Origin: Gemmatimonadota bacterium
GTDB taxonomy: Bacteria > Gemmatimonadota > Gemmatimonadetes > Longimicrobiales > Gaopeijiaceae
DNA: 64,000 nucleotides
NCBI GenBank assembly: GCA_039589315.1
Contig: JBDHHQ010000006.1
Span: 32,001-96,000 of the forward strand
Reading direction: 5' to 3'
Every line of letters begins with the position of its first letter. Position 1 is the stretch's first letter. The position numbers and the translations under genes are program-made. Positions 10,025-59,586 of this stretch are shown piece by piece. The notes under the pieces were generated by a model that did no database searches, was not told where the DNA came from, and saw nothing but the letters and a program-made list of their open reading frames with translations.

Positions 10025-10142
10025 CTCACCCCTCCCGAGCGTCTCCAGCCGATCGATGACACGGCCCGCGGCCGCCCCCATCCAACATCGGGCTCAGGGC
10101 CGGGTCGTGCAAAGAAACGCCCGGGCCCCATCCCTGCGCCCG

Positions 10143-10259
10143 TCAGATCCGGGTTGGTCCCTGCGTGGCCTCGGACGACCACGTCATGAAGTCTCGGATG
10201 TCCTGGTTGGACGTGACGATATCCTCGGCCCGCAGGTACATCATGTGGCCGCTCGGGTA
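10143..10259 (-). pseudogene. C-terminal remnant of a serine carboxypeptidase (S10-like)
   Basis: YPSGHMMYLRAEDIVTSNQDIRDFMTW...*; the GHM(M)Y catalytic-His motif is present, with no matching N-terminal coding region upstream. Confidence 0.6.
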
Positions 10260-43769: not shown

Positions 43770-46208
43770 TCAGGTCACGGGGGTCGTCTTCTTCTTGAGG
43801 ACGAAGAGACCTTCCCGCATGCTGGTCACGACGATGACCCCGCTCTGGAAGTACGGGTAGTTGCTCCAGGATCCGGCGAAGCCGGGAGCGTCCTCACCAA
43901 CCGACACCGTGTCGAAGTACCCCACCTCTTCGGGGTTCTCCGGGTCCGAGATATCCAGGATCCTCAGCCCGCTCGTGTAGTTGGACTGATACATGAGGTC
44001 GCCCTGGACATACAGGTTGTGGTCCGACGCGGAATTGCTGCCGAGATGCTCGTTCACCAGGATCGGATCGTCCAGATCGGCGATGTCCCAGACCAGGGTG
44101 CGGGTCCTCTCGACGGCGCCCGCCAACTCGTCGAGCTCGTCGTTCATGTAGAAGTAGCGGTGGTCGTCCGACACCCAGCCCTGGTGGAGGTAGGCGGAGT
44201 TCGGATACGCTGCCGAGGCCACGGCGATGGGGTTGGCCTTGTCGGACACGTCCGAGATGCTCAGAGCGTTCTCGTTGGCCCCGAAGCAGATCTCGCTGCC
44301 GGCGTAGTCCTCGTCGGGACCCTCGTACGCGATGCACTGGGCATCGTGGCTGTAGCCGGTGGAGGCAAGGCCCGTGTTGGAGTCGGAGAAGCACCCCGCG
44401 AACACCAAGCTCCCGGGCTCGCGGATGTCGATCATGTGAAGCCCTCCCCCGCACGTCTGTCCCCCGCCGCTGGCCCCCACCACGTAGGCGAACCCGGTGT
44501 CCTCGTTGATCACGATGTTGTGCGCGCTGTAGATCCCGTCGTAGTGGGCGGTCTCCTCGAAGACAACAGGCTCCGCTCCCACGTCCCGCAGCTGGGTGAG
44601 GTCGAAGACCTGCACACCGTGGGCGCCTGCGTTGTCGGCGACCACGAACGCGTGGTCTCGGTAGACCTTCACGTCGCGCCACATGTTGGCGATCGCGCCC
44701 TCGTGGAGGGGGAGCTCACCCAGATACACCGGGTTGGCGGCGTCGCTCACGTCGACGAACGCTGTGCCGTCGTTCCGGCCCACGATGGCGTACTCGCGAC
44801 CCGTCTCGGGGTCGGTCCATCCCCAGATGTCGTTCACGATCACGCCCCGCTCGCCCCCCAGGCCCTGCACCGGGACGAAGGCCACGAGGTCCACCTCCTC
44901 GCACGTGAACGACCGGGCCGTGCCTGACTGGCACTCGACGGGCCCACCCACGACGGCCTCCATCCCGCCGCTCTCGTCGAAGAGCTCCGCCCCGCTGGCC
45001 CACTCCCGCGTGGCGGGATCCAGGGCGTAGACATGCCCCGTGCCCTCAAAGAAGGCCTCTCCCGGGGCCCCGATGACCGCCACGTCACCTTCTGCGGCCA
45101 GGGCCTGTCCGAAGAATGCGAAGGGGGAGCCGAAGTCGATCTGTTGGACCTGCGTCCACGTTCCGGCGTCGGAGGGGCGGAACACGAAGGCGCCACCTGC
45201 TCCACCGCCGAGGAGGGGTGCGCCGAGGAACAGGTCGGTCTCGGAGAACGCCATCGAAAGCCCCGCCAGGGACTGGGGTGGGGCGTTCTCGGGCGCGATG
45301 ATCTCCCGCTGACCCCACTGTCCCGTCGCGTCGTCCGCCGCGAACCGGAACGCGCCGCCCGCGAACTGGTTGGCCAATGGTGCGGTGGCGAAGACGTGAC
45401 CGTCCCGAACGGCAACGGCCCAGCCCAGAGCGCCAGGGCCGGGGTCGGCGGGCCGAAGGTCGGCCACCGGGTTCCAGCCGTCGTCGTCCCGCTGGAAGAT
45501 GTGGACGGATCCGGGCAGGATCGTAGGCGGATTGGGGTCGGGAATCAGACTGATCATGTCTCCGGGCGCACCGGCGGCCAGAAGGCCGTCGGCCACGGCC
45601 AGCGCACTGCCGAACCGCGCGCCATCGGCGGCTTCCGCCGGCGTGAGCTCGGCTCCCCGGCTCCAGGTCCCGTCCTGACCCAGCGCGTACGCGATGACGC
45701 GGCCGGCGGGAGCCCGGTCGGGAGACGAGATCAGGGCCACGCCGTCCTCGAGGGCCACCGCCGAGCCGAATCCCTCCCCTTCCTCTCCGTCCTCGGGTGC
45801 GAGGCGCGTCACCTCGCGCCAACTCCCGTCCGGGGTACGCTGAAAGACCCAGGCCGCCCCAGCGCGGCCGGCCCGGGGCGCACCGACGAGCAGCAGGCCG
45901 CCGTCGACGGCCAGGGCGTCGCCGAACCCGATGCCGAGCTCCGCCCCGGTCGGTGACACCGTCGCGGACTCCACCCACTCACCGCCTCGGGGCACGAAGA
46001 CGTGCACCGCACCGGGCCGGTTGGCCGGCAGCGGGAACGCCCCCACTTCACCCGGTTGGCCGACGAAGAGCTCCCCGTCGTGGAACACGACGGTAGCGGC
46101 AAACGCGCCGGCCGAGACAGACGGGATACGCGACGATATGGACTGGGCGGCGGCCGGGGCGGCCAGCCCCAGCGCCAGCATGACTGCGACAGTCACGGAC
46201 CCCTGCAT
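43770..46208 (-). CDS. Choice-of-anchor-B domain protein with N-terminal FG-GAP repeats, exported (paralogue 1)
   Basis: Signal peptide; FG.A.A...GAP repeats; NDIWGWTDPETGREYA, WRDVKVY, SAHNIVINE, YSHDAQC, HQGW, DHNLY, GSWSNYPYF. Confidence 0.9.
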   Translation of the reverse strand: MQGSVTVAVMLALGLAAPAAAQSISSRIPSVSAGAFAATVVFHDGELFVGQPGEVGAFPLPANRPGAVHVFVPRGGEWVESATVSPTGAELGIGFGDALAVDGGLLLVGAPRAGRAGAAWVFQRTPDGSWREVTRLAPEDGEEGEGFGSAVALEDGVALISSPDRAPAGRVIAYALGQDGTWSRGAELTPAEAADGARFGSALAVADGLLAAGAPGDMISLIPDPNPPTILPGSVHIFQRDDDGWNPVADLRPADPGPGALGWAVAVRDGHVFATAPLANQFAGGAFRFAADDATGQWGQREIIAPENAPPQSLAGLSMAFSETDLFLGAPLLGGGAGGAFVFRPSDAGTWTQVQQIDFGSPFAFFGQALAAEGDVAVIGAPGEAFFEGTGHVYALDPATREWASGAELFDESGGMEAVVGGPVECQSGTARSFTCEEVDLVAFVPVQGLGGERGVIVNDIWGWTDPETGREYAIVGRNDGTAFVDVSDAANPVYLGELPLHEGAIANMWRDVKVYRDHAFVVADNAGAHGVQVFDLTQLRDVGAEPVVFEETAHYDGIYSAHNIVINEDTGFAYVVGASGGGQTCGGGLHMIDIREPGSLVFAGCFSDSNTGLASTGYSHDAQCIAYEGPDEDYAGSEICFGANENALSISDVSDKANPIAVASAAYPNSAYLHQGWVSDDHRYFYMNDELDELAGAVERTRTLVWDIADLDDPILVNEHLGSNSASDHNLYVQGDLMYQSNYTSGLRILDISDPENPEEVGYFDTVSVGEDAPGFAGSWSNYPYFQSGVIVVTSMREGLFVLKKKTTPVT

Positions 46209-46316
46209 TCGTTCCTCCGACGATTCCGGGTCTGTAGCGTGGCGCCCGGGGGCCCCACGATGGACGGGAAGCGCTGAATCTCATCGGGGAGACCGGTCAC
46301 GTAAAGGCCACGGCGC

Positions 46317-48443
46317 CTAGCCCTCGCCCTCCCGGCGGACCCGGGCTTGCACGATGATCTCCCCTTCGAGGACGCGGTCCACCACGTCCATGCCGCGGAT
46401 GACCTCGCCGAAGACCGTGTACTGGTGGTCGAGGCGCAAGTTGTCCACCAGGTTCACGTAGATCTGGGCATCGCCGGTGTCCCGGCCCCTGGTGGAGAGC
46501 CCGACGGCGGCCCGCCAATTGCCCGCGAGGCCCACCTCGTCCCGGGTGTACGGCCCGTCGCCCCAGTACTCGTTCGCCCCGGGACTCCCGCCCTGGATCA
46601 CGAAGTTGGGCGCCACCCGGTGGAAGGTCAGGCCGTCGAAGTACCCCTCTCTCGTCAGGCGGGCGAAACGCGCGGCGTTGGTGGGGGCCAGATATGGAAA
46701 GAGCCGGATCTCGATCTGTCCGCCGCTGTCCATGTCCAGAACCACGGTCGAGCGGGCCAGCTCGGCGAGCTCGGCCGGGCCGGGAACCGCCGACAGGGGC
46801 AACGGAACGGGCTCCGGCGTGTGAGGCTCGCCGGTCCAGTCGGTCAGCAGCTCGGCGGCCCGGCCGGCGATCACGGGATCGAAATCGACGAGGTAGGGAA
46901 CGACGTCGGCGGTGCGGGTCGGGTCGCCCAGCTCGCCCAGCCGCTCCAGGAGGGCTGCGCGGACGTCCCGGGAGGTGTCCCGACGTTGCTCCGTGAACCG
47001 GGACAGCGCTTCCAGGAGGGCCGGTACCGCGGCCGCTCGCTGCGGGCTGCCGGCCAACAGGCCCGCCGCGGTCATGACCAGCTGAGGGTCGTCGGCGGAC
47101 AGCTGTCCGACCAGAACCGGATCGGCACCGTGGCCCAGGGCGGCCACGAGCTCGCGGATCGCCGCCAGCCGAACGTTGGGGTGGGGGTCCCGGGCCAACT
47201 CCCTAAGGAGCGCTTCGTCGCTTCGAGCGGCTGCGGCTGGGGCGGCGTAGGCCCGGGCGAACGGGCTCCGGTGCCGGGAGAGCACGACTACGGCGCTACC
47301 GGCCTCGTGGGGCGCCACGGTGGCCAACGCCGCGACGGCGTGAGCCCAGCGGTGCCATGACCTGCCGGGGTCGGGGACGTCCGCGGCCCCACGTGCCAGG
47401 ACGTCGAGTTGCCCTGCGGCCTCCGGGCACGGCTCGGCCAGCTCGTCCAGCGCCAGCAGCGCCACGTGGTCGTCGGTGTCGGAGGCTGCCCTGAAGAGCG
47501 GCTCGCAGCCCATTGAAGCGCGCAGTGCGGCCGCGGTGCGGAGCGCTTCCCAACGCACCCTGGGTGCCGAGTCGATGAGGGCCCGACCGAGGAGCTCGAC
47601 CGGATCGGCCAGGGCGGCGAGACCACGGGCCGCAACGCGCCGCACCTCGTGGTCCGGGTCCGAGAGCCCGGTCGCCAGCACCGATCGCTCCGGCGTCGTG
47701 CTGCCGGCCGTGTACGCCAGGAGCGCCGCACGGCGGACCCGCGCGGCGGCGAGCCCTGCGGCGGTTGTGGGTCCGGACTGCCGTGCGTCCGACCCTCCGG
47801 AGGTCCGTCCCCACTGAGCCAACTCCGCCAGTGCGGCTCGCGTGTCGGCGTCGAACGCACGAAGCGTGCTCCCCCTTCGGGCCAACGATTCGAGGCCTCG
47901 GGCCAATGCCAGGCCTCGCGCGTCCGCGGCCGTCGTCCCCGCCTCACCGGCTGGTTGGGCCAGGAGGTCTACGAGCACGCGCTCCGCCTGGGCGTGGGCT
48001 TCGGCCCCGTCGTACGCCAGCCTGCCCAGCGTCTGGCCGTAGACCGCCTGGACGACTGGATCCCGCTCACCGGCGAGGCCCTGGATCAGGGCCGTCCACG
48101 CTGCCGGCCATCCCTCGTTCCAGGACGCCTGTCCGATGGCGTTGACCGCCTCGGCCCGGACGCCGGCGTCCGGGTCGTCGAGCGCCCCGGATAGCGTCCC
48201 GATCCAATCACTGCGCTCGTACCGCCCCAGGGTCCGGACCGCGACACGTCGGACCGCGGCGCTGTCATGGGCCAGGGCCTCCCGCATGACCGCCATAGCT
48301 TCAGGGGAGTCGTCCCGGGCGTCCTCGAGGGACCGGAGGGCGCGGAGGATCTCGGCACCGGCGTCCTCGTCCGAGCCCGACTCGGGCGGCGAGCAGGCCG
48401 CGAAGATCAGTGGCAAGACGAGAATCCAGGGGCGCTTCGGCAT
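46317..48443 (-). CDS. HEAT-repeat lipoprotein with C-terminal cyclophilin-type PPIase domain
   Basis: Lipobox FAAC; D....VR..A..ALG repeats; FDGLTFHRVAPNFVIQGG, YTVFGEVIRGMDVVD. Confidence 0.9.
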   Translation of the reverse strand: MPKRPWILVLPLIFAACSPPESGSDEDAGAEILRALRSLEDARDDSPEAMAVMREALAHDSAAVRRVAVRTLGRYERSDWIGTLSGALDDPDAGVRAEAVNAIGQASWNEGWPAAWTALIQGLAGERDPVVQAVYGQTLGRLAYDGAEAHAQAERVLVDLLAQPAGEAGTTAADARGLALARGLESLARRGSTLRAFDADTRAALAELAQWGRTSGGSDARQSGPTTAAGLAAARVRRAALLAYTAGSTTPERSVLATGLSDPDHEVRRVAARGLAALADPVELLGRALIDSAPRVRWEALRTAAALRASMGCEPLFRAASDTDDHVALLALDELAEPCPEAAGQLDVLARGAADVPDPGRSWHRWAHAVAALATVAPHEAGSAVVVLSRHRSPFARAYAAPAAAARSDEALLRELARDPHPNVRLAAIRELVAALGHGADPVLVGQLSADDPQLVMTAAGLLAGSPQRAAAVPALLEALSRFTEQRRDTSRDVRAALLERLGELGDPTRTADVVPYLVDFDPVIAGRAAELLTDWTGEPHTPEPVPLPLSAVPGPAELAELARSTVVLDMDSGGQIEIRLFPYLAPTNAARFARLTREGYFDGLTFHRVAPNFVIQGGSPGANEYWGDGPYTRDEVGLAGNWRAAVGLSTRGRDTGDAQIYVNLVDNLRLDHQYTVFGEVIRGMDVVDRVLEGEIIVQARVRREGEG

Positions 48444-48749
48444 ACGGGCGGTCCTGGCTGCGGGGATCGGATGATGCTCCTTGATAGGGGAAGTAGGCGG
48501 TGGGGGCAAACGGCTCCGCGCTCATGGGGATCCCCTCCAGGCGGCCCCGGCACGGAAGGCGTCCGGTGCGGAGCCATTTCGTCGCATTTCATGAATGAGC
48601 GGGTGCTCGCCAGCACGGGTCTGTCCCGGACACTGGGCCCGTGTTAGGCTATGTGCTGAACACGCCGCGGTGCTCGAGGTAGGTGACGGCAGACGCGCGA
48701 ACGAGGCGCCCTGGAAGGCCAGGTGGACCATCCAGCGGGGGAGAGCACA

Positions 48750-49268
48750 ATGGAGTTGGCCAGGCACGCCATCGGAGAGGGTCGGTCACGCATAGGTCCG
48801 GGCGCGGCTGCCCGGGGTGCAGCCGTCCCGGCGGACGCCCGGAGCGCACGGCCCGGCCGCGCCGAAGCCGTCGAGCCGGTGCGCGGGGTGCGTCGGATCG
48901 TGACGCTCAGCGCCGGATGGATCAGCTTGGCACTCGGCTTCCTCGGCGTCTTCCTGCCGTTGCTGCCGACGACGTGTTTCGTTCTCCTGGCTGGAGTCTG
49001 CTTCGCGCGAACCTCGCCCAGAGCGCATCGTTGGCTCTACCACAACCGGCTCTTCGGCCGGCACCTCACGTCCTACCGGGACGATCGTTCCGTGCCCATG
49101 GGGTTGAAGGTCGGATCGCTGACGCTCCTGTGGCTCACGGTGGGAGGCAGCGCCCTGGCCATCGACGGTCCCGGCTGGGTTCGGTTGACGCTGGTCGCCA
49201 TCGCGGTGGCCGTGACCGTGCATGTCGTGAGTCTGCAGACGCGGAAGGCCGCTCGCTCCAGGCCGTAG
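48750..49268 (+). CDS. YbaN/DUF454 family membrane protein
   Basis: LG.LGVFLPLLPTTCF.LLA..CFARTSP....WL..NRLFG. Confidence 0.85.
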   Translation: MELARHAIGEGRSRIGPGAAARGAAVPADARSARPGRAEAVEPVRGVRRIVTLSAGWISLALGFLGVFLPLLPTTCFVLLAGVCFARTSPRAHRWLYHNRLFGRHLTSYRDDRSVPMGLKVGSLTLLWLTVGGSALAIDGPGWVRLTLVAIAVAVTVHVVSLQTRKAARSRP

Positions 49269-49327
49269 GCCCACCGGGTGGACCCCATTCCTGATCCTTC
49301 GCCCCCAGGCAGCCGCCGAGTCATCGC

Positions 49328-50050
49328 GTGACCGTCTTGGATCTCGCCCAATCGGGCGGACTTTCGGACACCCTTGCCAACAGTCCTGTCCTGGCTTCTG
49401 TGACGCTGTTCGGGGCCGGTGTGCTGACGAGCCTCACGCCGTGCATCTACCCCATGATCCCCATCACCGCTTCGGTGCTGGCGGGCACGGCGGGAGACGA
49501 GCCCTCGCGCAGGCGGACGGTGGGCCTGACCCTGACATACGTGACGGGCTTGGCCCTCTTCTACGCCGTCCTGGGTCTCATGGCAGGGCTCACCGGGAGC
49601 CTGTTCGGCACGGTGAGCGCGAATCCGTGGGTGCGTTTCGCCACCGGCAACGTGCTTCTGCTCTTCGCCTTGGCCATGCTGGACGTGATCCCCCTCTCCG
49701 CTCCACAACGGCTCCTCAATTGGGCGGGAAACCTCGGGGGTGGATCGTACCCCGCGGTCTTCTTGCTGGGCGCCACGTCCGGCATCGTGGCCGCTCCGTG
49801 CGGCGCGCCCGCGTTTGCCGTGGTGCTCACGTGGGTGGCGGCGACCGGCGCCGGGGTCATGGGTTTCTTGTATCTGTTCGTCTTCTCCCTGGGGATGACG
49901 GCCCTACTGGTGGTGGTGGGCCTGTTCTCCGGCACGCTGGCTCGCTTGCCTCAGGCCGGTCGCTGGACCGGATGGATCAAGAAGAGCGCAGGAGTGATAA
50001 TGCTTGGCGTGGCCCAGTACTACTTCGTGCTGACGGGAATGGGACTGTGA
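49328..50050 (+). CDS. ccdA: CcdA/DsbD-beta transmembrane electron transporter
   Basis: GVLTSLTPCIYPMIP and AAPCGAP (the two catalytic Cys); FSLGM; 6 TM segments. Confidence 0.9.
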   Translation: MTVLDLAQSGGLSDTLANSPVLASVTLFGAGVLTSLTPCIYPMIPITASVLAGTAGDEPSRRRTVGLTLTYVTGLALFYAVLGLMAGLTGSLFGTVSANPWVRFATGNVLLLFALAMLDVIPLSAPQRLLNWAGNLGGGSYPAVFLLGATSGIVAAPCGAPAFAVVLTWVAATGAGVMGFLYLFVFSLGMTALLVVVGLFSGTLARLPQAGRWTGWIKKSAGVIMLGVAQYYFVLTGMGL

Positions 50051-50664
50051 AAGACGAACACGCTGCGATGGAGCTGGAGCGAGTGTGCTCGTCGGGCGCC
50101 ACGGGCCATCGGACCCTTCAGGCCTCTCCGTGGTCGTGGCTCCGGTGGCCGGTGCGGGTGACCCTGCTCCATCTGGCTCTGGTCCTTCCCGCGGCGATCG
50201 TCCCCGCGAGTCCCCTGGCCGCCCAGGAGCGGGGCGAGCTGGGGATCGCCGTGGGCTCCACCGTGGCGCCCGTGGTCGTCGAGGATCTGGACGGCAATCC
50301 GGCCGATCTGGGCGAGTACCTGGGGCAGGGCCCCATGCTCCTGGAGTTCTGGGCCAGCTGGTGCGAGAACTGCAGGGCGCTCCAACCCCGCATGGATGCT
50401 GCCCACGCAGCCTGGGGAGATCAGGTGGCCTTCGTGGCCATCGCGGTAGCCGTGAACCAGACACCGCGGCGGGTGCGGCGGCACATCGACAAGGAGCCGA
50501 TCCCGTATGCCGTGCTCTGGGACGACGGCGGTGGGGCGGTCCGTGCCTTCTTTGCGCCTGCGACCTCCTACGTGGTGGTCCTGGACTCGGCGGGCACCGT
50601 GACGTACACGGGTATCGGCCCCGACCAGGACATCGACGCCGCGGTTCGGACCGCTCTGGACTGA
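50047..50664 (+). CDS. TlpA/ResA family periplasmic disulfide reductase
   Basis: LLEFWASWCENC, cis-Pro loop APATS; GTGA-coupled to ccdA; signal peptide. Confidence 0.9.
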   Translation: MKDEHAAMELERVCSSGATGHRTLQASPWSWLRWPVRVTLLHLALVLPAAIVPASPLAAQERGELGIAVGSTVAPVVVEDLDGNPADLGEYLGQGPMLLEFWASWCENCRALQPRMDAAHAAWGDQVAFVAIAVAVNQTPRRVRRHIDKEPIPYAVLWDDGGGAVRAFFAPATSYVVVLDSAGTVTYTGIGPDQDIDAAVRTALD

Positions 50665-50748
50665 GCCTACTGCCTGTCCGGGGGTCCTGGCCGGCGACGC
50701 CACGGCGGCTGCCGACGTCCGCTTCTACCCGGCTGCCGAATGGCGCTT

Positions 50749-51399
50749 CTAGCAGTCTCCGGGTGACAGTGTCCGTTGAAGCAGCAGGGCCAGGTCCACG
50801 CCGTCCCGACCGACCTCCTCCTCCTGCTCGAGCTCCGGCGCGACCGCGGCTACCGCCGCCGCCAATTCGTCGTAGGCGGTCGGATCGATCTCACGGAAGG
50901 GAGAGGCCGTGAACGCCACCCGGCCCTCGGGGTCCAGCACCGCCACCATGCGGGAGCCGGCCGAGCCACTCTCCCTCACCCCCACGCCGAGCTTCCGGAA
51001 GGAGTCCCCGTCGGGATCGGACGCGAACAACATGGGGAAGTCGGCATCCCGGGCCCAGGACGCGAGCTCATCGATGGGGTCCCTGCTTATGGCGATCACG
51101 GTGACGCCGCGCCCACCGCGGAAGATCGTAGCGTACTGATCACGGTACGCTTCCATTTGGATCGTTCACCCACGCGTTCGAGCACGGAAGAAGAACGCGA
51201 GCACGACGGCGTCGCCCCGGAAGTCGCTGAGCCGCACCGGATCGGCCAGAATCCCGTAGCGAGTGGCTCCCGGAAGCTCGAAGTCGGGTGCCATCGTACC
51301 GACAGCGATCGGATCCGGGTCGACGGCTTGCGCGCTCAGGGGAACGACGACAGCGCAGAGCGCGGCCGCGATGAGCAGTGCTGTGCGGAAGAGGCGCAT
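50749..51399 (-). CDS. Exported peroxiredoxin (AhpC/TSA, BCP-like) selenoprotein, Sec78
   Basis: Signal peptide, VGTMAPDFEL, LSDFRG..VVLAFFFRARTRG-TGA-TIQMEAYRDQY, VIAISRD, FASD, R....DPEG.V. The two ORF-track pieces are in one frame, and the TGA is at the TxxC peroxidatic position. Confidence 0.85.
51130..51151 (-). promoter_or_regulatory. Candidate bacterial SECIS element 1
   Basis: AGCGTAC-CGTGATCA-GTACGCT, starting 15 nt after the TGA; GU at +23/+24. Confidence 0.65.
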
Positions 51400-51540
51400 G
51401 GGCTGGTCCAGCTGGAGTGTCAGTTGGGCGGGCAACGCGTCAGTATAGGGCCTGGACGACGGCGCCGGCTACCACCAGCGCGACAACCTGCGCGTGACGC
51501 AGAGGCTGCTGGAAGATCTGGGTAGCCACGATCCCCATCC

Positions 51541-51744
51541 GACTCGGGCCTCTCCGGCGCGACGCGAGCCCTTCCGGCAGCTCGGGCCCTTCCTCCGCAG
51601 CCCAGAGCCCCTCCGCCGCGACTCGGGCCCATCCGCCGCAGCCAGAGCCCCTCCGCCGCGTCTCGGGCCCTTCTGCCGCAGCCTGGAGCACCTCCGCTGC
51701 AACTCGGGCCCTTCCGCCGCGACGGCAGCCCCTTCGCTGCAACC
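51541..51744. repeat. Degenerate ~20-bp tandem repeat, about 10 units, alternating two variants (40-bp higher-order unit)
   Basis: For example GACTCGGGCCCATCCGCCGC / AGCCAGAGCCCCTCCGCCGC / GTCTCGGGCCCTTCTGCCGC / AACTCGGGCCCTTCCGCCGC. Confidence 0.85.
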
Positions 51745-51770
51745 AGGGTGGAGGAGTGACAGTCCAAGGG

Positions 51771-51796
51771 GGGAACTCGGGGGCGGTTCGATTGTT
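51771..51796 (+). promoter_or_regulatory. ECF sigma-type promoter motif upstream of the propeller operon
   Basis: GGGAACT-N16-GTT. Confidence 0.5.
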
Positions 51797-51941
51797 ACAA
51801 CGTCCATCGTCGCATGGCAGCTTCAGCCCCTCCGCTTTCAGTCGGAACCGAGGCGGAGGCGTTTTCTTGTCGGGCCCCGGGGCCAGCACGCCCAGCGGCA
51901 CCTGTTGTTCATGAGCTTCAATCGCGTGGGGTAGGCCGATC

Positions 51942-54311
51942 GTGAGGCAATCAACGAGCATTCTGTCGGTCGCGCTGCTGGCTTCGTTGGCGGCAACGTC
52001 CGGGCTTCAGGCACAGGGGTATGGCACCTCGGTGGCGGTGGGGGAGGACGAGGTGGTCGTGGCCGAGCCCCTGGTCGAAACCGGCCCGGGAGCGGTGTTC
52101 GTGTACTCCAAGGACGGCGGCGAGTGGGTGGAGGCGCAACGGGTGGAGGCATCCGACGCCTCCCAGGGAGACCACTTCGGCAGGGCGCTGGACCTGGACG
52201 GCAACACGCTGATTGTCGGTGCCACGGTCCGGGAGAACACCCGGGGTGCCGCGTACGTGTTCGAGCGGAGCGCCGACGGAGCCTGGGCCGAATCCCAGAT
52301 TCTGCTCGCGAGCGATGGAGCCGACGGCGACGCCTTTGGCCGGGTCGTGGCCGTCGAGGGTGACGTCGCGTTGGTCTCGACATGGGGACACGCGGACGGC
52401 CAGGGCGCAGTCTACGTGTTTCGACGGGACGCCTCTGGCTCGTGGTTCGAGGACGCCAAGCTCATGGGGAGCGACATCCGGCCGAACGAGTGGTTCGGGA
52501 TGAGCCTCGCCGTTCACGGCGAGACGGTTCTGGTGGGAGCTCCACAGAAGAACGGCAACCGTGGTGCGGTCTACGTGTTCCGCCGCGACGCGGAATCGGA
52601 CGCGTGGTTGGAGGCAGCGATTCTCTCCGAGGAGCTTCCTCAGAACGCGTCGTTCGGGATGGCCGTGGCGCTCAGCGGCGGCCGCGCCCTGGTGGGGGCA
52701 CCCGGTCTCTACAGCGGAAGCGGGATCGTCTTCGACTACCGCCTCGACCCGGAGGCCGGTTGGGTGGCGACCGGCGCCCTCAGCGCGTTCGATGCAGCCC
52801 TTCCCGGCGCTCAGTTCGGCACGACGATCGTGGACAGGGGGCAGGAGGTGTGGATCTCGGCCCCTGGAGCCGTCGGCGCGTCCGGGGCCGCGTACGTCTA
52901 CCGGCGCAGTGAAGAGGGCGAGTGGCGCGGAACCGACAAGGTCATGGTGCAGAACGAGGCCGGTGACCGCTTCGCCACGACCTTGGCCGTCAACGGACAG
53001 TTGGCCGTGGCCGGCGCCGTGGGAGACGACTACGGCGCCGGCACTGCGGTCATCATCGAGCGAGGTGAGCGGGAGTGGGCCGCTGTCTCTCGTGTCTGGA
53101 GCGAGGCCCAGACCCTGGACCCGCTCCTGGGTGGCAAGATCGAGTGCTCGGACGGCAAGGCGGCCTTGTTCGACTGCTCGGACGTGGACGTCCTCTCGTT
53201 CCTGCCGGTGCGGGAGATCGGCGGCTCACGGGGTGTACAGCTCAATGACGTGTGGGGGTGGGTCGATCCGGAGACCGGTCGCGAGTACGCTCTCGTCGGG
53301 CGGATGGACGGGACGTCCTTCATCGACGTGACCGATGCCGCCAACCCCGCCTACCTGGGCAACCTCCCCAAGCCGGAGCAGGCGCGCGCCAACGTGTGGA
53401 GAGACATCAAGGTGTACGCCGACCACGCTTACGTCGTCGCCGACGGAGCAGGGGAGCACGGCATGCAGGTCTTCGACCTGCGCCAGCTTCGCGACGTCAC
53501 GGCCGGGCCTGTCACGTTTCAGGAGATCGCCCACTACGACGGAATCCACAGCGCGCACAACATCGTGATCAACGAGGACACGGGCTTCGCCTACGTCGTG
53601 GGCAGCAACGGCGGCGGCAACAGCTGCGGCGGTGGCCTCCACATGATCGACATCCGCTCTCCGTCCAATCCGGTGTTCGCCGGTTGCTTCTTCGACACCG
53701 AGACGGGGAATCAGGGCACCGGCTACAGCCACGATGCCCAGTGCGTCACCTATCACGGGCCCGACGAGGACTACCAGGGAAGCGAGATTTGCTTCGGAGC
53801 CAACGAGACCGCGCTGAGCATCGCCGACGTCACCGACAAGGCGGAACCCGTGGCGTTGGCCAGCGCCTCGTACCCGAACGTCGGGTACTCCCACCAGGGT
53901 TGGCTCGACGAGGAGCACCGGTACCTCTACATGAACGACGAGCTCGACGAGTCCGCCGGCACCGTCGTAGGCACGCGGACGTTGGTCTGGGACGTGACCG
54001 ATCTCGACGATCCCATTCTCGTGAAGGAGCACTTCGCCGAGAACGGCGCCACCGACCACAACCTGTACGTCAGGGGCGACTTGATGTACCAATCCAACTA
54101 CCTGAGCGGCCTCCGGGTGTTGGACATCAGTGATCGCGAGAATCCGGTCGAGGTCGGGTACTTCGACACGGTGCCGTGGGGGGAGGATTCGCCTGAGATG
54201 GACGGCTCGTGGAGCAACTACCCGTACTTCGCCAGCGGGACGATCGTGGTGACCAGCCAGCGGGAAGGCGTCTTCTTCCTTCAGAAACGGGAGCGGAATC
54301 TGCTGCCCTGA
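51942..54311 (+). CDS. Choice-of-anchor-B domain protein with N-terminal FG-GAP repeats, exported (paralogue 2)
   Basis: Same motifs as paralogue 1 (NDVWGWVDPETGREYA, HSAHNIVINEDTGFAY, YSHDAQC, HQGW, DHNLY, GSWSNYPYF). Confidence 0.9.
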   Translation: MRQSTSILSVALLASLAATSGLQAQGYGTSVAVGEDEVVVAEPLVETGPGAVFVYSKDGGEWVEAQRVEASDASQGDHFGRALDLDGNTLIVGATVRENTRGAAYVFERSADGAWAESQILLASDGADGDAFGRVVAVEGDVALVSTWGHADGQGAVYVFRRDASGSWFEDAKLMGSDIRPNEWFGMSLAVHGETVLVGAPQKNGNRGAVYVFRRDAESDAWLEAAILSEELPQNASFGMAVALSGGRALVGAPGLYSGSGIVFDYRLDPEAGWVATGALSAFDAALPGAQFGTTIVDRGQEVWISAPGAVGASGAAYVYRRSEEGEWRGTDKVMVQNEAGDRFATTLAVNGQLAVAGAVGDDYGAGTAVIIERGEREWAAVSRVWSEAQTLDPLLGGKIECSDGKAALFDCSDVDVLSFLPVREIGGSRGVQLNDVWGWVDPETGREYALVGRMDGTSFIDVTDAANPAYLGNLPKPEQARANVWRDIKVYADHAYVVADGAGEHGMQVFDLRQLRDVTAGPVTFQEIAHYDGIHSAHNIVINEDTGFAYVVGSNGGGNSCGGGLHMIDIRSPSNPVFAGCFFDTETGNQGTGYSHDAQCVTYHGPDEDYQGSEICFGANETALSIADVTDKAEPVALASASYPNVGYSHQGWLDEEHRYLYMNDELDESAGTVVGTRTLVWDVTDLDDPILVKEHFAENGATDHNLYVRGDLMYQSNYLSGLRVLDISDRENPVEVGYFDTVPWGEDSPEMDGSWSNYPYFASGTIVVTSQREGVFFLQKRERNLLP

Positions 54312-54336
54312 CGGGCGCAGCTTGCCGGCCGGGCCC

Positions 54337-55428
54337 ATGACCGTGAACGCATCTCACGCCTCTCTCACTGCCGGTCGACGCCGGGGCGCGGCACTGCCCA
54401 TGGCGCTCGTGGCGATGGCCGCCACAGCCCCTCTGTCCGTCTCCGGCCAAGAGGGCCCCTACCTCTACGCAGCCGGCCAAGGCGCTGCCACGGTGTCCGT
54501 CATCGACGTGGGGTCCCTCGAGGTCGTGGAGACCGTCGACCTGCGGACCCTCGGCTTCTCGGGGAACGCCAAACCTCATCACATCGTCGTCGAGCCCGAT
54601 GGGTCTGCGTGGTACCTGTCGCTCATCGGCGAGAATCGGGTGCTGAAGTTCGATCGAGACAACGCCCTCGTCGGTCAGGTGGAGCTGGAGGTACCGGGCA
54701 TGCTGGCCATCCACCCGAGGGAAGACCTCTTGTACGTGGGCCGCTCCATGAGCGCGGTGAACCCGCCTCGGCGGATCGGCATCGTCGACCGGTCGGACAT
54801 GTCCGGCGATGAACTCGACGTCCTCTTCCCGCGGCCACACGCGCTCGCCGTCCGTCCCGAAGGCGACTTCGTCTACTCCGCCAGTCTCGCGGCCAACCAG
54901 ATGGCGACCATCGAGACGGATACCGACGCAGTCACGCTGGCCGAGTTGGAGGGAGAGACCCACACCCTCGTACAGTTCGCGATCTCGCCGGACGGGAGCA
55001 CGCTGGTGGCGACCGGTCAGCTCACCGGGTTGCTCCTCGTCTTCGACCTGGCCGACCCGGCATCGCCGCGGCTCGTCGACACCATCGCGGTGGGCGCGCA
55101 CCCCTGGCACCCGGTTTTCACGCCGGACGGCCGGTACGTGTACTTCGGCAACAAGCTCGCGAACACCGTCACGGTGATCGACGTGGAGGAACGGCGCGTG
55201 GCCAAGGTGGTCGAGGGATACGGCATCTCGGAGCCCCACGGAAGCGCCGTGTCCCCGGACGGCCGCTTCGCGTTCATCGCGAGCAACAATCTGGGCGGCG
55301 CGTACGCGTCCGACGACGGGTCGAGACCCGGCACGGTAACCGTGATCGACACGTCCACCTACGAGATCGTCGCCGTGGTCGAGGTGGGAGAAAACGCCAC
55401 AGGCCTGGGGATCCGGCCTCCGTCGTGA
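54337..55428 (+). CDS. YncE/YVTN-type beta-propeller protein, His-rich, exported
   Basis: TVSVID repeats; KPHHI, RPHAL, HPWHP, EPHGS blade motifs; PDG turns. Confidence 0.85.
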   Translation: MTVNASHASLTAGRRRGAALPMALVAMAATAPLSVSGQEGPYLYAAGQGAATVSVIDVGSLEVVETVDLRTLGFSGNAKPHHIVVEPDGSAWYLSLIGENRVLKFDRDNALVGQVELEVPGMLAIHPREDLLYVGRSMSAVNPPRRIGIVDRSDMSGDELDVLFPRPHALAVRPEGDFVYSASLAANQMATIETDTDAVTLAELEGETHTLVQFAISPDGSTLVATGQLTGLLLVFDLADPASPRLVDTIAVGAHPWHPVFTPDGRYVYFGNKLANTVTVIDVEERRVAKVVEGYGISEPHGSAVSPDGRFAFIASNNLGGAYASDDGSRPGTVTVIDTSTYEIVAVVEVGENATGLGIRPPS

Positions 55429-55604
55429 GCCGGTTGGGGGACCGTGAGCCTGCGATCCCGGATCGAGTGACCCGACGAGGGCTCCGGCCGGCGCCGGCTC
55501 CATCGCCTGCCTGGTCCGCATCGCCGCCACATTGGTCCGACCCGAGTCTCGCTGCGGCGTGGTGGTCTCGACACGCAGTCGACGCTTCAACGCGACTCCA
55601 CGCC

Positions 55605-57488
55605 ATGCCATCGATGCCCCCGAGGTCCGCCGCGACTCGGTCTCGCCCGCGGCGGCTTCACCCCACTGCGCCTGCTGTCGCTCTGCCGTTTATGGCCGTG
55701 GTACTGGCCAGCTGCGCGCCGTCGACAGGTGTCGGGAGCTCAGGACCATCCCCTAGCGTCGAGACTACCGACTGGGAGCGGAGCGTCGACGGGGCATTCG
55801 CGGCGGACGAGGACGGCGTACCCTTCGCCTTTCCGTTCCTCGGGGGACTCAACGTCCCGCGGCCCCAGTTCGTCGACATCGACGCCGACGGCGACCTGGA
55901 CCTGTTCGTCCAGGAGCGCACCAACGACCTCATGTTCCTCGAGAACGTGGGCTCGGCGACGGCCGCGGTCTTCGAGTGGCGTACCGACCGGTTCATGAAT
56001 CTCGGCCTTGGTGAGTGGAACCGCTTCACGGACCTCGATGCCGACGGCGACCTGGATCTGCTGGCCGAGGAGCCGTTCAGCTACGTCCGCTACTACCGGA
56101 ATGACGGAAGCCCCCAAGCCCCGGCGTTCGTCCTGCTCCCGGACTCCGTGCTGGACGCCGAAGGGGAGCCGGTCTTCTCGGATCGGCAGAACATCCCCTC
56201 GGTGGCGGACATCGACTGCGACGGTCTCCCGGACCTGTTCCTGGGACGGGTCGAAGGGACCGTTACCCGATACGAGATGGTGCCCGGGACAGGCGCTGAT
56301 CCCCGGTTCCGCTTCGTCACTGGCCGCTTCGAGGACATCGAGATCGTGAACCAACTCGGGAGCCTGCACGGGGCCAACAGCATGGCCTTCGCCGACCATG
56401 ACGGCGACGGCGACGCGGACCTCTACTGGGGAGACTTCTTCGAGCCGGGTCTGCTCATCATCGAGAACCGGGGGTCGTGCGATGCCCCGAATCTACGGAG
56501 CGCGCCCGGTCCGGTCCCCGCCACCGCGCCCATCTCCACCAGCGGCTTCAACGCCCCCATGCCTGCGGATATCGACGGTGACGGGGACCTGGACCTCTTC
56601 GTCGGCGTGCTCGGCGGCGCGTTCAACCCCAACCGCACGGCTTCGGACAACTTCCACCTGTACGAGCGTCTGGCGGACGGCACCGTCGAGCTGCGCACGA
56701 CCCGTTACCTCGACGGCATCGATGTGGGAAGCGAGTCCCTCACCGTCCTGCGGGACCTCGACGCCGACAGCGACCTGGACCTTCTGATCTCAAACAAGAT
56801 CGACGCGCACGACCTTCAACGAGCCAGCCTCTACCGCTTCGACAACGTGGGCACGCCCACGGAGCCGAGGTTCCGCGCAGCGGGTACCTTCGACGTGGGC
56901 CGCGATTATCACATGGCGCCGGCATTCGGGGATCTGGACGGGGACGGAGACGACGACCTGCTGCTGGGAACCTGGAACAAGGGTGTGGCCCTGCTCTTGA
57001 ATGTCGGCACGCCCGAGGCTCCCCGCTTCACCGTAGCCGACTCGCAGTTCGTGAAGCTCACCCGGGGAAGCAACACCACGCCGACGCTGGGTGACCTGGA
57101 CGCCGACGGTGACCTGGACCTCGTCATCGGAGAAGCATCGGGGACGCTGAACTACTACCGGAACATCGGGTCCTCCGCCGAGCCGCGCTTCGAGTTGGTG
57201 AGCGATGAGTACGGCGGCTTCGATGTGGGTCGCCGGAGCGCTCCAACGCTGGTGGACGCTGACGGAGACCAGGACCTGGATCTGATCGTCGGACGGGAGA
57301 CGGGAGGTGTCTCGTTCTTCCGGAACGTCGGCACGCGCGCTGCTCCGGAGTTCGAGGAGGCCGAGGCGCCCGACCTGCCGCTCTGGTCCTTCGCGACTCC
57401 TTCGTTCGGTGATCTTGATGGGGACGGCGATCTGGATCTGGTGTCAGGGTCGGGAGCAGGTGGGGTGCTCTACCTGGAAGCGCGCTAG
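55605..57488 (+). CDS. FG-GAP/VCBS repeat (Ca-binding DxDxDG) lipoprotein
   Basis: About 10 DxDxDGDLDL repeats with NVGT...P.F linkers; lipobox LASC. Start could be as early as 55425. Confidence 0.85.
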   Translation: MPSMPPRSAATRSRPRRLHPTAPAVALPFMAVVLASCAPSTGVGSSGPSPSVETTDWERSVDGAFAADEDGVPFAFPFLGGLNVPRPQFVDIDADGDLDLFVQERTNDLMFLENVGSATAAVFEWRTDRFMNLGLGEWNRFTDLDADGDLDLLAEEPFSYVRYYRNDGSPQAPAFVLLPDSVLDAEGEPVFSDRQNIPSVADIDCDGLPDLFLGRVEGTVTRYEMVPGTGADPRFRFVTGRFEDIEIVNQLGSLHGANSMAFADHDGDGDADLYWGDFFEPGLLIIENRGSCDAPNLRSAPGPVPATAPISTSGFNAPMPADIDGDGDLDLFVGVLGGAFNPNRTASDNFHLYERLADGTVELRTTRYLDGIDVGSESLTVLRDLDADSDLDLLISNKIDAHDLQRASLYRFDNVGTPTEPRFRAAGTFDVGRDYHMAPAFGDLDGDGDDDLLLGTWNKGVALLLNVGTPEAPRFTVADSQFVKLTRGSNTTPTLGDLDADGDLDLVIGEASGTLNYYRNIGSSAEPRFELVSDEYGGFDVGRRSAPTLVDADGDQDLDLIVGRETGGVSFFRNVGTRAAPEFEEAEAPDLPLWSFATPSFGDLDGDGDLDLVSGSGAGGVLYLEAR

Positions 57489-57597
57489 CCGCCCCCTCCT
57501 GTCCGAATCGCACGCCAGTCGGCCACAGCCGTGCTCTCGGATCGGGCACCGTCCACTCACCAAGCGTCGTTGTCCGATCGCGCCACCCCCACTGCCC

Positions 57598-57680
57598 CGT
57601 TCTCGAAACGGTGTGCCAATCGCTCCCCGCCGCCGCGTTCTGAAATGGTGTGCCAATCGCTCCCCCTGACGCGTTCTCGA
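57598..57680. repeat. About 37-bp tandem repeat, roughly 2.3 copies
   Basis: Identical 19-mer GGTGTGCCAATCGCTCCCC at 57610 and 57647, each preceded by CGTTCT(C)GAAA. Confidence 0.8.
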
Positions 57681-57725
57681 CTCAGCCACCCGCTCACCCT
57701 ACCGCGCCCTCCGATCGCACCAGCC

Positions 57726-57751
57726 GGGAACTCCTACCCGACTTGCGCGTT
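57726..57751 (+). promoter_or_regulatory. ECF sigma-type promoter motif upstream of selenoprotein 2
   Basis: GGGAACT-N16-GTT, same spacing as 51771-51796. Confidence 0.5.
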
Positions 57752-57826
57752 CCCCGAGGGGAAGCGTGATTGCAGGTCGGTCGGTCCAAGCATACCCATC
57801 CTCGAGGGAGCCGAAGCGTGTCCACC

Positions 57827-58441
57827 ATGCGGCGATTCGTCCTGGGCGCTGCCCTTTCTATCGGGGTCGCCCTGGCTGTGGTCTGGCTCTTCACCGAGAT
57901 GAGCCCGATGGAGCTGGGGCCTGTGGATGGTCACGATCTACCCCCAACCGACCTGGAGCGGGTGGCGGTGGGGAGCGAGGCGCCGGACTTCACGTTGCGT
58001 GCCTTCCCCGAGGGAGCGGTGACCCTGTCCGACTACCGCGGCCAGAGGGATGTGGTCCTGGTCTTCTACAGGGGACACTGGTGACCGTGGTGCGCCCGTC
58101 AGTTCGGTGAACTGAGCGACCTCCTGACGCCCCAGCAGCGTGAGAACATAGAAATCGTGGCGGTCTCGATCGACGATCGGGAGCGGCAGCAGATGATGAT
58201 CGATCGTGTCCGTGAGGAGCACGGCATAGAGATCGACTACGTGCTCCTCACCGATACCGATCACCGAGTCATCAATCGGTACGGCCTCTTCAATCCCGAC
58301 GAGCCCAAGCATCGACCAGTTCCTCACCCCGCCGTCTACGTCATCGACAAGGACGGGATCGTCCGCTGGAAGTTAGTCGAGGTGAACTACAGGGTCAGAG
58401 CGGAGAACGAAGACATCCTGGCTGCCTTGGCGGACCTCTAG
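57827..58441 (+). CDS. Membrane-anchored peroxiredoxin-like (AhpC/TSA) selenoprotein with UxxC motif, Sec86
   Basis: N-terminal TM, VGSEAPDFTL, LSDYRG..VVLVFYRGHW-TGA-PWCARQFGEL, IVAVSID, LLTD, PHPAVYVIDKDGIVRW. Both ORF-track pieces are in frame; the family motif is FYRG.WCP.C. Confidence 0.9.
58099..58115 (+). promoter_or_regulatory. Candidate bacterial SECIS element 2
   Basis: TCAGTTC-GGT-GAACTGA, perfect 7-bp stem starting 15 nt after the TGA; GU at +23/+24. Confidence 0.75.
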
Positions 58442-58649: not shown

Positions 58650-58740
58650 CATGCCTGCCCTCGGCTCACGACTCCACCAAGTTCTGCCGTCCCGAGCCAC
58701 CCTGCCCTCCGCTCACGCTCCCACCGGATCCTGCCGTCCC
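58650..58740. repeat. About 47-bp degenerate tandem repeat, 2 copies
   Basis: Minus strand GGGACGGCAGGATCCGGTGGGAGCGTGAGCGGAGGGCAGG and GGGACGGCAGAACTTGGTGGAGTCGTGAGCCGAGGGCAGG. Confidence 0.65.
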
Positions 58741-58763
58741 GCCCGGCCCTGCCTTCCCACCTC

Positions 58764-59325
58764 TCACGATTCCGAGGGCACTGATCCCAACTTGCTGAAG
58801 GCGCTTACGCTTCTGAAGGCGGCGACGGCCATGCCGAGGTCGAGGGTCTCGCCAGCCCAGAGGGGGGTGGTGGTGAAGGGGTCGGGCACGATACCCCGGC
58901 TGCGGTGTTCGGCGAGGAGGTGCGCCCCCGGCCGATCCGGCAGCCTCGGCACGGGCGCCGAGGTGGGGAGGATCCGTCTTCTGGCCGGTAGGACGTGACG
59001 CCGCGCCCCGGCTCGGGCTCCACCCGGAAGCCGTCGTCGTGCGCGGCTCGGTGATGACGCCGGCAGAGCAGCACGAGGTTGCCGAGGCGCGTGGCACCGC
59101 CATCGGCCCAGTGCGTGACGTGATGGGCGTCGCAGAAGCGGAGGCCGCAGCCCGGGAAGCGGCATCCCCGGTCCCGGTGGTCCAGAGCCCGGCGCAGGGC
59201 CGGCGGCACGGTACGGGTCTTCCGGCCCACGTCCAGCAGCGCACCGTCGGGGGGCGTGCGTCATGACGACCAGGCCGGTCGCACGCCGAGCGCCGAGACG
59301 TTTCCGCGGAAACGCGCACGCCAGG
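58764..59325 (-). pseudogene. DUF222-HNH endonuclease remnant, 5'-truncated and multiply frameshifted
   Basis: GVRVSAETSRRSACD | GLVVMTHAP | DGALLDVGRKTRTVPPALRRALDHRDRGCRFPGC..FCDAHH..HWADGG.T.LGNLVLLCRRHH | RILP...TPLWAGETLDLGMAV, spread over three frames. Confidence 0.8.
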
Positions 59326-59429
59326 GTCGGGAGACAGGGGGCGATCGCGAGCATCCGGGCAACCGTCGCTCCCGCAACCGCATCTACACGTGTAGTTGCT
59401 CGAATGGCTGGCCGCCCGAAGGAAGGTTG

Positions 59430-59570
59430 GGGTGTGCGACGGTGGGCTCGGGTGCGCGACAGCAGGCCACGGTTGCGCGATGGTCCCCCAGAGCGTGGGA
59501 CACCAGGCCGAAGCTGTGCGACAGTGGACCCGGAGCGTGGGACACCCGGTGCGAGCATGGGACGACACCT
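59430..59570. repeat. Degenerate ~20-22-bp tandem repeat tract
   Basis: Recurring GTGCGAC/GCGCGAC/GTGGGAC cores about 21 nt apart; GAGCGTGGGACACC occurs twice. Confidence 0.55.
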
Positions 59571-59586
59571 GACCGCGAGGACCGAC

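Follow-up and report, generated by a model that had tools for sequence, protein, structure and literature searches.

A putative selenocysteine peroxiredoxin convergent with ccdA-tlpA, and a neighbouring three-propeller operon, in a Gemmatimonadota genome

Closest described systems and the locus

The ScsB-TlpA-PprX pathway of Caulobacter crescentus removes peroxides in the cell envelope, and both electron transfer and peroxidase activity were shown for it (PMC3322552). We analysed a window of 64,000 nt from the genome of a Gemmatimonadota bacterium of the order Longimicrobiales (contig JBDHHQ010000006.1; C6:32001-96000 of source genome G000, which has 6.7 Mb and 67% GC), in which a ccdA-tlpA pair is convergent with the gene of an exported peroxiredoxin whose catalytic codon is TGA. 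An operon of three exported propeller proteins and a second gene with an in-frame TGA follow. The first-pass annotation had joined all of these into a single system, in which a selenocysteine (Sec)-based reducing chain matures or protects the propeller proteins. Our analysis favours two separately distributed modules that lie side by side, a ccdA-tlpA-Sec-peroxiredoxin unit and an operon predicted to encode an exported metalloenzyme complex, the second probably being independent of the first. The features of the locus are as follows, with signal peptides, lipoboxes and transmembrane segments assigned by eye and SECIS standing for selenocysteine insertion sequence.

49328..50050, plus strand: CcdA, the DsbD transmembrane domain alone with both redox Cys, 240 aa (PF02683, E 1.5e-44)
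50152..50664, plus strand: TlpA-like exported thioredoxin with WCENC (Redoxin, E 5e-12)
50749..51399, minus strand: putative exported one-Sec peroxiredoxin, BCP/PrxQ-like, with FxxxTxxU and Arg150 and without a resolving Cys (TGA at 51166-51168)
51131..51150, minus strand: putative SECIS hairpin of the peroxiredoxin gene, 6-bp stem and 8-nt loop, recognised by conservation in TGA copies
51942..54311, plus strand: choice-of-anchor B (CAB) protein with signal peptide, FG-GAP_2 propeller and C-terminal propeller (TIGR04312), a predicted binuclear-metal hydrolase
54400..55428, plus strand: YVTN/YncE-like exported propeller with four invariant His and no Cys (upstream starts at 54322 and 54337 are possible)
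55605..57488, plus strand: FG-GAP-repeat lipoprotein, lipobox VLASC (start ATG 55605 or 55692)
57827..58441, plus strand: putative membrane-anchored Prx-like UxxC selenoprotein (TGA at 58082-58084; PF00578, E 1e-28)
58100..58114, plus strand: putative SECIS hairpin of the UxxC gene, 6-bp stem and GGU loop, recognised by stem pairing across copies

The redox genes share with ScsB-TlpA-PprX a membrane electron transporter, an exported thioredoxin-like CxxC protein and an exported BCP/PrxQ-type peroxiredoxin, and the UxxC protein resembles Caulobacter PrxL as an extra exported Prx-like protein. They differ from it in that CcdA has the transmembrane domain only, unlike the three-domain ScsB, and in that the two-Cys PprX is replaced here by a probable Sec enzyme that has no resolving Cys and has lost the Pro of PXXXTXXC. 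The peroxiredoxin is tied to its relay by synteny here and by experiment in Caulobacter. By analogy, the unit probably works like ScsB-TlpA-PprX without being a member of it, as a selenium variant of a known envelope pathway.

The two TGA-containing genes also have relatives among catalogued selenoproteins. PMC13188914 lists a TxxU Prx selenoprotein family (PF00578; prototype from Eubacterium acidaminophilum) and tabulates UxxC/UxxU Prx-like thiol:disulfide oxidoreductases of the same Pfam family. The window peroxiredoxin agrees with the former, as described there, in its AhpC/TSA fold, its TxxU and a SECIS directly after the UGA; it differs in being exported and in reading FxxxTxxU where PxxxTxxU is called highly conserved (PMC13188914), and at 30.8 bits it falls far under the PrxU model cut-off of 270. 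The UxxC protein shares with the latter an AhpC/TSA domain with UxxC, and differs in being membrane- or lipid-anchored and in that no NCBIfam model reaches its cut-off. The term 'Gemmatimonad' had no match in the main text of PMC13188914 or of the BSepDB paper, and neither an exported Sec peroxiredoxin tied to CcdA-TlpA nor its proline loss was found in the literature searched, a body that left most subscription papers and supplements outside. These Sec families may be catalogued in BSepDB or in such supplements.

Selenocysteine decoding and the ccdA-tlpA-peroxiredoxin unit

In both genes the in-frame TGA occupies the catalytic position, within FFFRARTRG-U at 51166-51168 on the minus strand for the peroxiredoxin and within FYRGHW-U-PWC at 58082-58084 on the plus strand for the UxxC gene. 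A search of the source genome for Sec machinery, proposed with the first-pass annotation as a check, recovered tRNA-Sec (selC), selA, selB and a selD with a TGA of its own. In a sample of 41 related genomes, the peroxiredoxin had an orthologue (E<1e-30) in 23, with TGA as the catalytic codon in 21 and TGC in two; all 21 genomes with the TGA form had selA, and the 17 genomes that lacked a selA match had no orthologue at this threshold. Of 43 TGA rows, 41 have exactly the same 20-nt hairpin, one has a variant and one is cut off; the hairpin occurs in none of 16 Cys rows, after one locus without the motif was dropped from the comparison. It is also kept in 78 of 80 distinct metagenome sites (79 of 121 matching loci), collected with a pattern that fixed the amino acids and left synonymous bases free. 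Six codons of this SECIS are invariant at synonymous sites in 20/20 Sec-Prx copies.

The UxxC gene carries its TGA in 15/15 orthologues, all with the UxxC motif, and in all 19 copies found among 121 genomes of the phylum. Fourteen of the 15 genomes carrying it have selA, the exception being a genome 78% complete. Five of the six stem pairs are kept in 15/15 copies, with a compensatory C-G to U-A change in three, and a homologue elsewhere in the source genome reads FYRGHWCPYC, the Cys form. Several orthologues have a lipobox, and the gene neighbourhood is variable. The bacterial SECIS model given in PMC13188914 (its Fig. 2) calls for a loop of 3-9 nt, a G in loop position 1-2, a spacing of 16-37 nt and a minimum free energy (MFE) of -7.5 or lower. 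Both hairpins fit it, with the apical loop 21 nt past the UGA, a G at loop position 1-2 and MFEs of -10.0 and -9.0 kcal/mol. The case rests on hairpins and TGA codons conserved in orthologues, not on fold energy alone, and on this comparative evidence both TGA codons very likely encode selenocysteine. The first-pass proposal of two hidden selenoproteins was thus borne out, as was its view that standard annotation splits such genes: the protein collection has a 135-aa C-terminal fragment encoded in the window (P0003).

Further in-frame TGA candidates were seen in the source genome, most of them with SECIS-like hairpins, at C3:170974, C6:5052, C12:23251, C96:4570, C42:2548, C53:47086, C74:7083 and C20:6092. 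By motif we take these to be two formate dehydrogenase-like proteins, two OsmC-like proteins, a second UxxC redoxin, an arsenite methyltransferase-like protein, a CxxU AhpD-like protein and a DUF3179-like protein. The read-through scan was crude and missed the peroxiredoxin itself, so the number is a lower bound; with several other candidates in the genome, hidden selenoproteins are ordinary here.

The link between the peroxiredoxin and ccdA-tlpA recurs well beyond the window. The tlpA gene adjoins ccdA in 68 of 69 loci, 13 of 20 loci from relatives have the pair convergent with a Sec peroxiredoxin, and tlpA is convergent with the peroxiredoxin in 35 of the 47 metagenome sites having at least 1.2 kb of room. 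Among the 121 phylum genomes, for which Sec and Cys labels were taken from the stop column and not checked singly, searches detected ccdA in 89 and a member of the peroxiredoxin family in 93; 86 genomes gave both genes and 25 gave neither. Where both occur, they are convergent within 6 kb in 42 genomes (always the TGA copy) and in another close arrangement in three. Of 15 further loci, ten (L285-L316, e.g. L285, L286, L289 and L309) have another exported one-Cys peroxiredoxin, a paralogue with FYPxDxTxGC, within the ccdA-tlpA operon itself and in the same orientation; the three genomes scored as having ccdA only are among them. Because the link recurs with two paralogues and in three gene orders, it is good evidence of function.

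The relay proteins keep their redox residues: both CcdA cysteines were found in 41 of 44 distinct copies (the second motif was unread in three), and the TlpA CxxC in 66/66 distinct motif matches. The TlpA-like protein scores under the TlpA and ResA model cut-offs. The selenoprotein TsoB was considered for CcdA and rejected (161 vs 805 bits, no TGA). The translational coupling of ccdA and tlpA claimed in the first-pass annotation is uncertain; a GTG at 50047 does overlap the ccdA stop (GTGA, 50047-50050), yet the start of the signal peptide is more probably the GTG at 50152.

Proteins of the CcdA family take electrons from thioredoxin in the cytoplasm and hand them through the membrane to a CxxC protein in the periplasm. 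In the scheme suggested by the synteny, TlpA would take these electrons from CcdA and reduce the peroxiredoxin, whose selenolate would attack H2O2 or an organic peroxide with the aid of Thr75 and Arg150. With no resolving Cys at hand, a thiol of TlpA might then resolve the selenenic acid so formed, directly and by way of a mixed selenenylsulfide. The UxxC protein would likely be a further client of CcdA/TlpA, like PrxL. An AlphaFold2 model of the peroxiredoxin has a BCP-like fold (predicted local distance difference test score, pLDDT, 85), with Bcp4 (3hjp) as top match at E 3e-12; in an alignment of 93 rows T75 is kept in at least 90%, and position 78 and R150 are invariant. The CcdA-TlpA relay next to it likely recharges the peroxiredoxin, which would remove envelope peroxides; conserved synteny supports this chain, which the first-pass annotation had also proposed, with the electron transfer itself inferred.

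Two other explanations were weighed against these readings, and the observations that favour them count against ours. The TGA codons might be true stops in split or dead genes. The hairpins fold no better than shuffled sequences (z +0.36 to -1.14), and the C-terminal fragment stands in databases as a protein. Such a reading is nevertheless very improbable, as 16 + 102 intact homologues have their catalytic Cys where the peroxiredoxin has TGA, both gene halves are conserved, the SECIS codons are frozen in TGA copies alone, and the TGA copies track selA. The relay might also be a general envelope reducing hub, serving cytochrome c maturation, methionine sulfoxide repair or disulfide isomerisation, in which case another thiol or the UxxC protein would recycle the Sec-peroxiredoxin and the adjacency would be ancestral only. 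Consistent with this, peroxiredoxin and ccdA lie apart in 41 of the 86 genomes with both, two further CcdA-like genes and a Ccm system needing reductant are present in the source genome, no CcdA adjoins its CcmC/CcmF-type genes, and no Cys was found past the active site in 80/80 metagenome sites (130 codons read) or in 101 of 102 Cys homologues. We regard the hub as quite unlikely, however: a second peroxiredoxin paralogue sits independently inside the ccdA-tlpA operon, the two other CcdA-like genes are available for Ccm, and the UxxC gene, present in 19 of 121 genomes against 93 for the peroxiredoxin family, cannot supply the general reductant.

The window peroxiredoxin has a C-terminal tail of about 20 residues (50749-50810, minus strand), common to genome G001 and loosely to G010 only, that ends in Cys216. 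This residue lies in a low-confidence region of the model and might serve this lineage as a resolving Cys.

The first-pass annotation had described an exported TxxU peroxiredoxin; the TxxU and the convergence with tlpA were confirmed, while the Pro of PxxxTxxU is absent. Phe71 stands in the place of the Pro of PXXXTXXC, a residue termed absolutely conserved in PMC3322552. Lacking it, the enzyme is filed as a BCP-derived, non-canonical variant. The same position holds Phe, Tyr or Ile in all 39 distinct Sec copies from genomes and in 72 of 77 readable metagenome Sec sites; Pro is kept in 16/16 genome Cys copies and in 100 of 102 parsed Cys homologues (from 120 hits, 18 of them fragments or unparsed). 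With both sites masked, and with three duplicates and one short row dropped, a tree placed two Cys+Pro copies inside well-supported Sec clades, forcing at least three changes, and a single Cys clade was rejected (p-AU 0.007). The three independent Sec/Pro pairs on starred branches were all concordant (p 0.25); with only three pairs, a coupling of Sec to Pro loss is suggested by these alignments, not shown. The Pro-to-Phe/Tyr change accompanying Sec might retune the active-site loop.

An absolute rule of Sec without Pro was rejected, as five of the 77 readable metagenome Sec sites keep Pro and two of the 102 Cys copies lack it. The five Pro-keeping Sec copies (L109, L113, L158, L163 and L167) are candidate intermediates. 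The two Cys+Pro copies nested in Sec clades, L036 (genome G026, 9571-10233), whose SECIS is half-decayed, and L072, are probable Sec-to-Cys reversions by their position in the tree. A second Sec-peroxiredoxin copy with GxxU (RVRGGG-U) for TxxU was seen in G004 at C13:550861 (L055) and in L177.

If the unit works as proposed, the Caulobacter envelope peroxide pathway has a selenium form in a phylum that is abundant and seldom cultured, and this form has escaped notice since gene callers cut the enzyme in two. The family, in which Cys+Pro and Sec+Phe/Tyr forms are closely related and Cys+Pro copies are nested in Sec clades, offers a natural experiment on why an 'invariant' Pro can be lost with selenium, and it also bears on recycling without a resolving residue outside the cytoplasm.

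The three-propeller operon

Nine of 15 other genomes, examined over 20 loci, have the complete trio of CAB, YVTN and FG-GAP genes. The window contains two CAB genes, which match the choice-of-anchor B family (TIGR04312, with LVIVD repeats, PF08309) at 454.7 and 447.2 bits against a cut-off of 100 (E 3e-136 and 5e-134). This family has no assigned function, and the phrase 'choice-of-anchor B' was found in no paper of the literature searched, most subscription papers being outside it. The first-pass description of the propeller proteins as His/Cys-rich did not hold, as Cys makes up 0-0.8% and His 1.3-2.4% of their residues and the YVTN protein has no Cys.

In the CAB domain of the operon (residues numbered from window position 53121), 44-45 of 45 homologues share His146, 204, 258 and 313 and Glu274, and 42-45 of 45 share six Cys. 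The domain was modelled as a propeller (pLDDT 85). Foldseek ranks the phosphotriesterase of Sphingobium sp. TCM1 first (5hrm, E 6e-12), ahead of WD40 proteins at 1e-9, and the only profile matches below E 1 are 5hrm and 5ioj, the same enzyme (6e-4 and 1e-3). His residues stand at blade starts in both proteins; the profile aligns CAB His146 directly with 5ioj His258, and the other His correspond by repeat position. The spacing of CAB His258 and Glu274 resembles that of residues 389 and 407 in TCM1. The TCM1 enzyme reportedly binds two manganese ions through His258, 317, 389 and 475 and Glu201 and 407. At 16-19% identity, the CAB protein departs from this enzyme by an additional propeller of the FG-GAP type, by its six invariant Cys and by its operon partners. 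The model and these matches suggest that the CAB domain is likely a two-metal hydrolase, with a His4/Glu site that would hydrolyse an ester; the six cysteines would likely be structural disulfides. Telling against this assignment, the VIA ranking placed the 5hrm enzyme 33rd among generic propellers. Look-alikes of the domain in the atlas were LVIVD/CAB clusters only.

The YVTN protein passes the YVTN repeat model only. It was rejected as a true YncE (32.9 bits against 400), as a lactonase-type NosZ (71.2 against 700), as hydrazine synthase beta (56.1 against 560) and, far under the cut-off, as a PQQ-associated propeller. Homologues at 55-58% identity are named from Balneolaceae. Complex prediction paired the YVTN and FG-GAP proteins with a score of 0.80, the best of three controls reaching 0.00; 116 of 157 solved complexes attained this mark, as did 2 of 215 mismatched pairs, counts that apply only roughly with our own alignments. 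Separate runs agreed in at least 68% of contacts, with a partner pLDDT of at least 90, and many interface residues are invariant in the alignments. The YVTN propeller is accordingly modelled as binding the FG-GAP lipoprotein, which would anchor it face to face, and the trio is predicted to form an exported metalloenzyme complex. The predicted interface and the candidate metal site give a handle on a widespread operon without an assigned function.

Linkage of the two modules and neighbouring genes

The redox genes adjoin the trio only in the same-genus genome among the 15 other genomes examined. In this first sample neither selA nor this ccdA was found in 5 of the 15 FG-GAP carriers (completeness 88-97%), and because the trio is also found without ccdA or selA, the propeller operon is treated as a separately inherited module. 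Across 151 genomes of the order, FG-GAP occurred in 68 and ccdA in 91, with both in 58, FG-GAP only in 10 and ccdA only in 33. No propeller gene lay beside ccdA in 69 loci (flanks of 1.5-4 kb) or beside the peroxiredoxin in 79 metagenome loci (within 2.5 kb). In the phylum sample ccdA lay within 10 kb of the trio in none of 28 other carriers, and outside the order none was near where readable.

The alternative is one functional system, in which CcdA-TlpA and the two selenoproteins keep the disulfide- and metal-bearing propellers folded or protected and selection holds the units together. Several observations speak for it, and so against independent modules. The distance from ccdA to FG-GAP could be taken in 32 genomes of the order with both genes on one contig. 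Only the source genome has them within 10 kb, and in the other 31 they are 12-25 kb apart in 19, 34-59 kb in three and 183 kb-2.4 Mb in nine, so that a loose linkage of 12-60 kb is seen in 22 of 31 genomes and 6 of 10 other genera. In G001, G022, G098, G105, G114, G121 and G154 the UxxC gene is no more than 15 kb from the trio. In G154, G098 and G114 it falls within the same 25-30 kb as the other two units, most of the intervening genes map to other contigs of the source genome, and as a baseline the other window genes are at least 180 kb from ccdA; exceptions to that baseline are one window gene 55 kb from ccdA in G105 and, at 12 kb in G010, a piece of 126 bp. The six near-invariant cysteines of the CAB domain would also suit such a system.

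Against it, distances of 10 kb or less were seen in this genus only, 17 of the 22 close cases come from one genus, and four of the nine distant genomes belong to that same genus. The same-contig sampling favours short distances, as 26 of the 58 genomes with both genes have them on different contigs and went uncounted. The order and orientation of the linked genes are shuffled between genomes, the link is broken even inside the main genus, and one unrelated small gene of the block also stays regional in the source genome (C6:102 kb), as inertia predicts. The trio occurs where ccdA or selA was not found, its YVTN member has no Cys, and disulfide formation in general needs an oxidase and not a reducing chain. 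The absence of conserved synteny between redox and propeller genes, named with the first-pass annotation as grounds for dropping the single system, was found in part only, with adjacency restricted to the genus and looser linkage around it. From these distances the linkage is best read as ancestral regional synteny in decay, tightest in this genus, and a functional tie is unlikely, if worth keeping in mind. Of the single system proposed earlier, the redox chain and its selenoproteins were retained, and the tie to the propellers was found to be weak. A fuller form of it is slightly less probable again: a compact ancestral envelope system of the Longimicrobiales in which CcdA-TlpA and two selenoenzymes, one a Pro-less one-Sec peroxiredoxin with an active site co-evolving with selenium, would maintain the disulfides and two-metal site of a lipoprotein-anchored three-propeller hydrolase complex. 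A combined redox-propeller system is therefore the least supported part of the account, possible and unlikely, and we retain two modules side by side.

Pfam and NCBIfam returned the gene order and families listed in the first-pass annotation (two CAB, HEAT with cyclophilin, DsbD_TM, Redoxin, two AhpC-TSA, YVTN and FG-GAP). The remaining features of the locus are as follows.

43770..46208, minus strand: second CAB paralogue, FG-GAP_2 propeller and CAB domain (TIGR04312, E 3e-136)
46317..48443, minus strand: HEAT-repeat and cyclophilin protein, lipobox LIFAAC (Pfam)
48750..49268, plus strand: DUF454/YbaN membrane protein, upstream of ccdA (PF04304, E 8e-34)
51540..51737, no strand: intergenic tandem repeat, nine copies of a unit of about 20 nt with a 41-nt higher period (Tandem Repeats Finder)

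The second CAB paralogue and the HEAT-cyclophilin gene are present upstream as the first-pass annotation had noted. Related genomes have 1-7 CAB copies, several of them with a second copy close to parts of the cluster, and the second paralogue is a fixed member of neither module. Among the loci examined, the HEAT-cyclophilin gene and the DUF454/YbaN gene (the latter among 20 loci, and overlooked in the first-pass annotation) adjoin the redox genes only in the same-genus genome, and both were rejected as module members.

The tandem repeat at 51540..51737 sits between the divergent peroxiredoxin and CAB genes. Further intergenic tandem repeats, with units of 37 and 47 nt, lie at 57588-57680 and 58654-58757 and flank the trio and the UxxC gene. 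A short, remnant-like HNH-endonuclease frame (PF01844; 58805-59230, minus strand) has no counterpart called between the UxxC gene and the next gene in G001. It is followed by an exported protein with a lipobox-like start (59263-60846, plus strand), which has no Pfam or NCBIfam match and is 82% identical in G001, and by a VWA/YfbK-type exported protein with a CarboxypepD_reg-like domain (61020-63092, minus strand).

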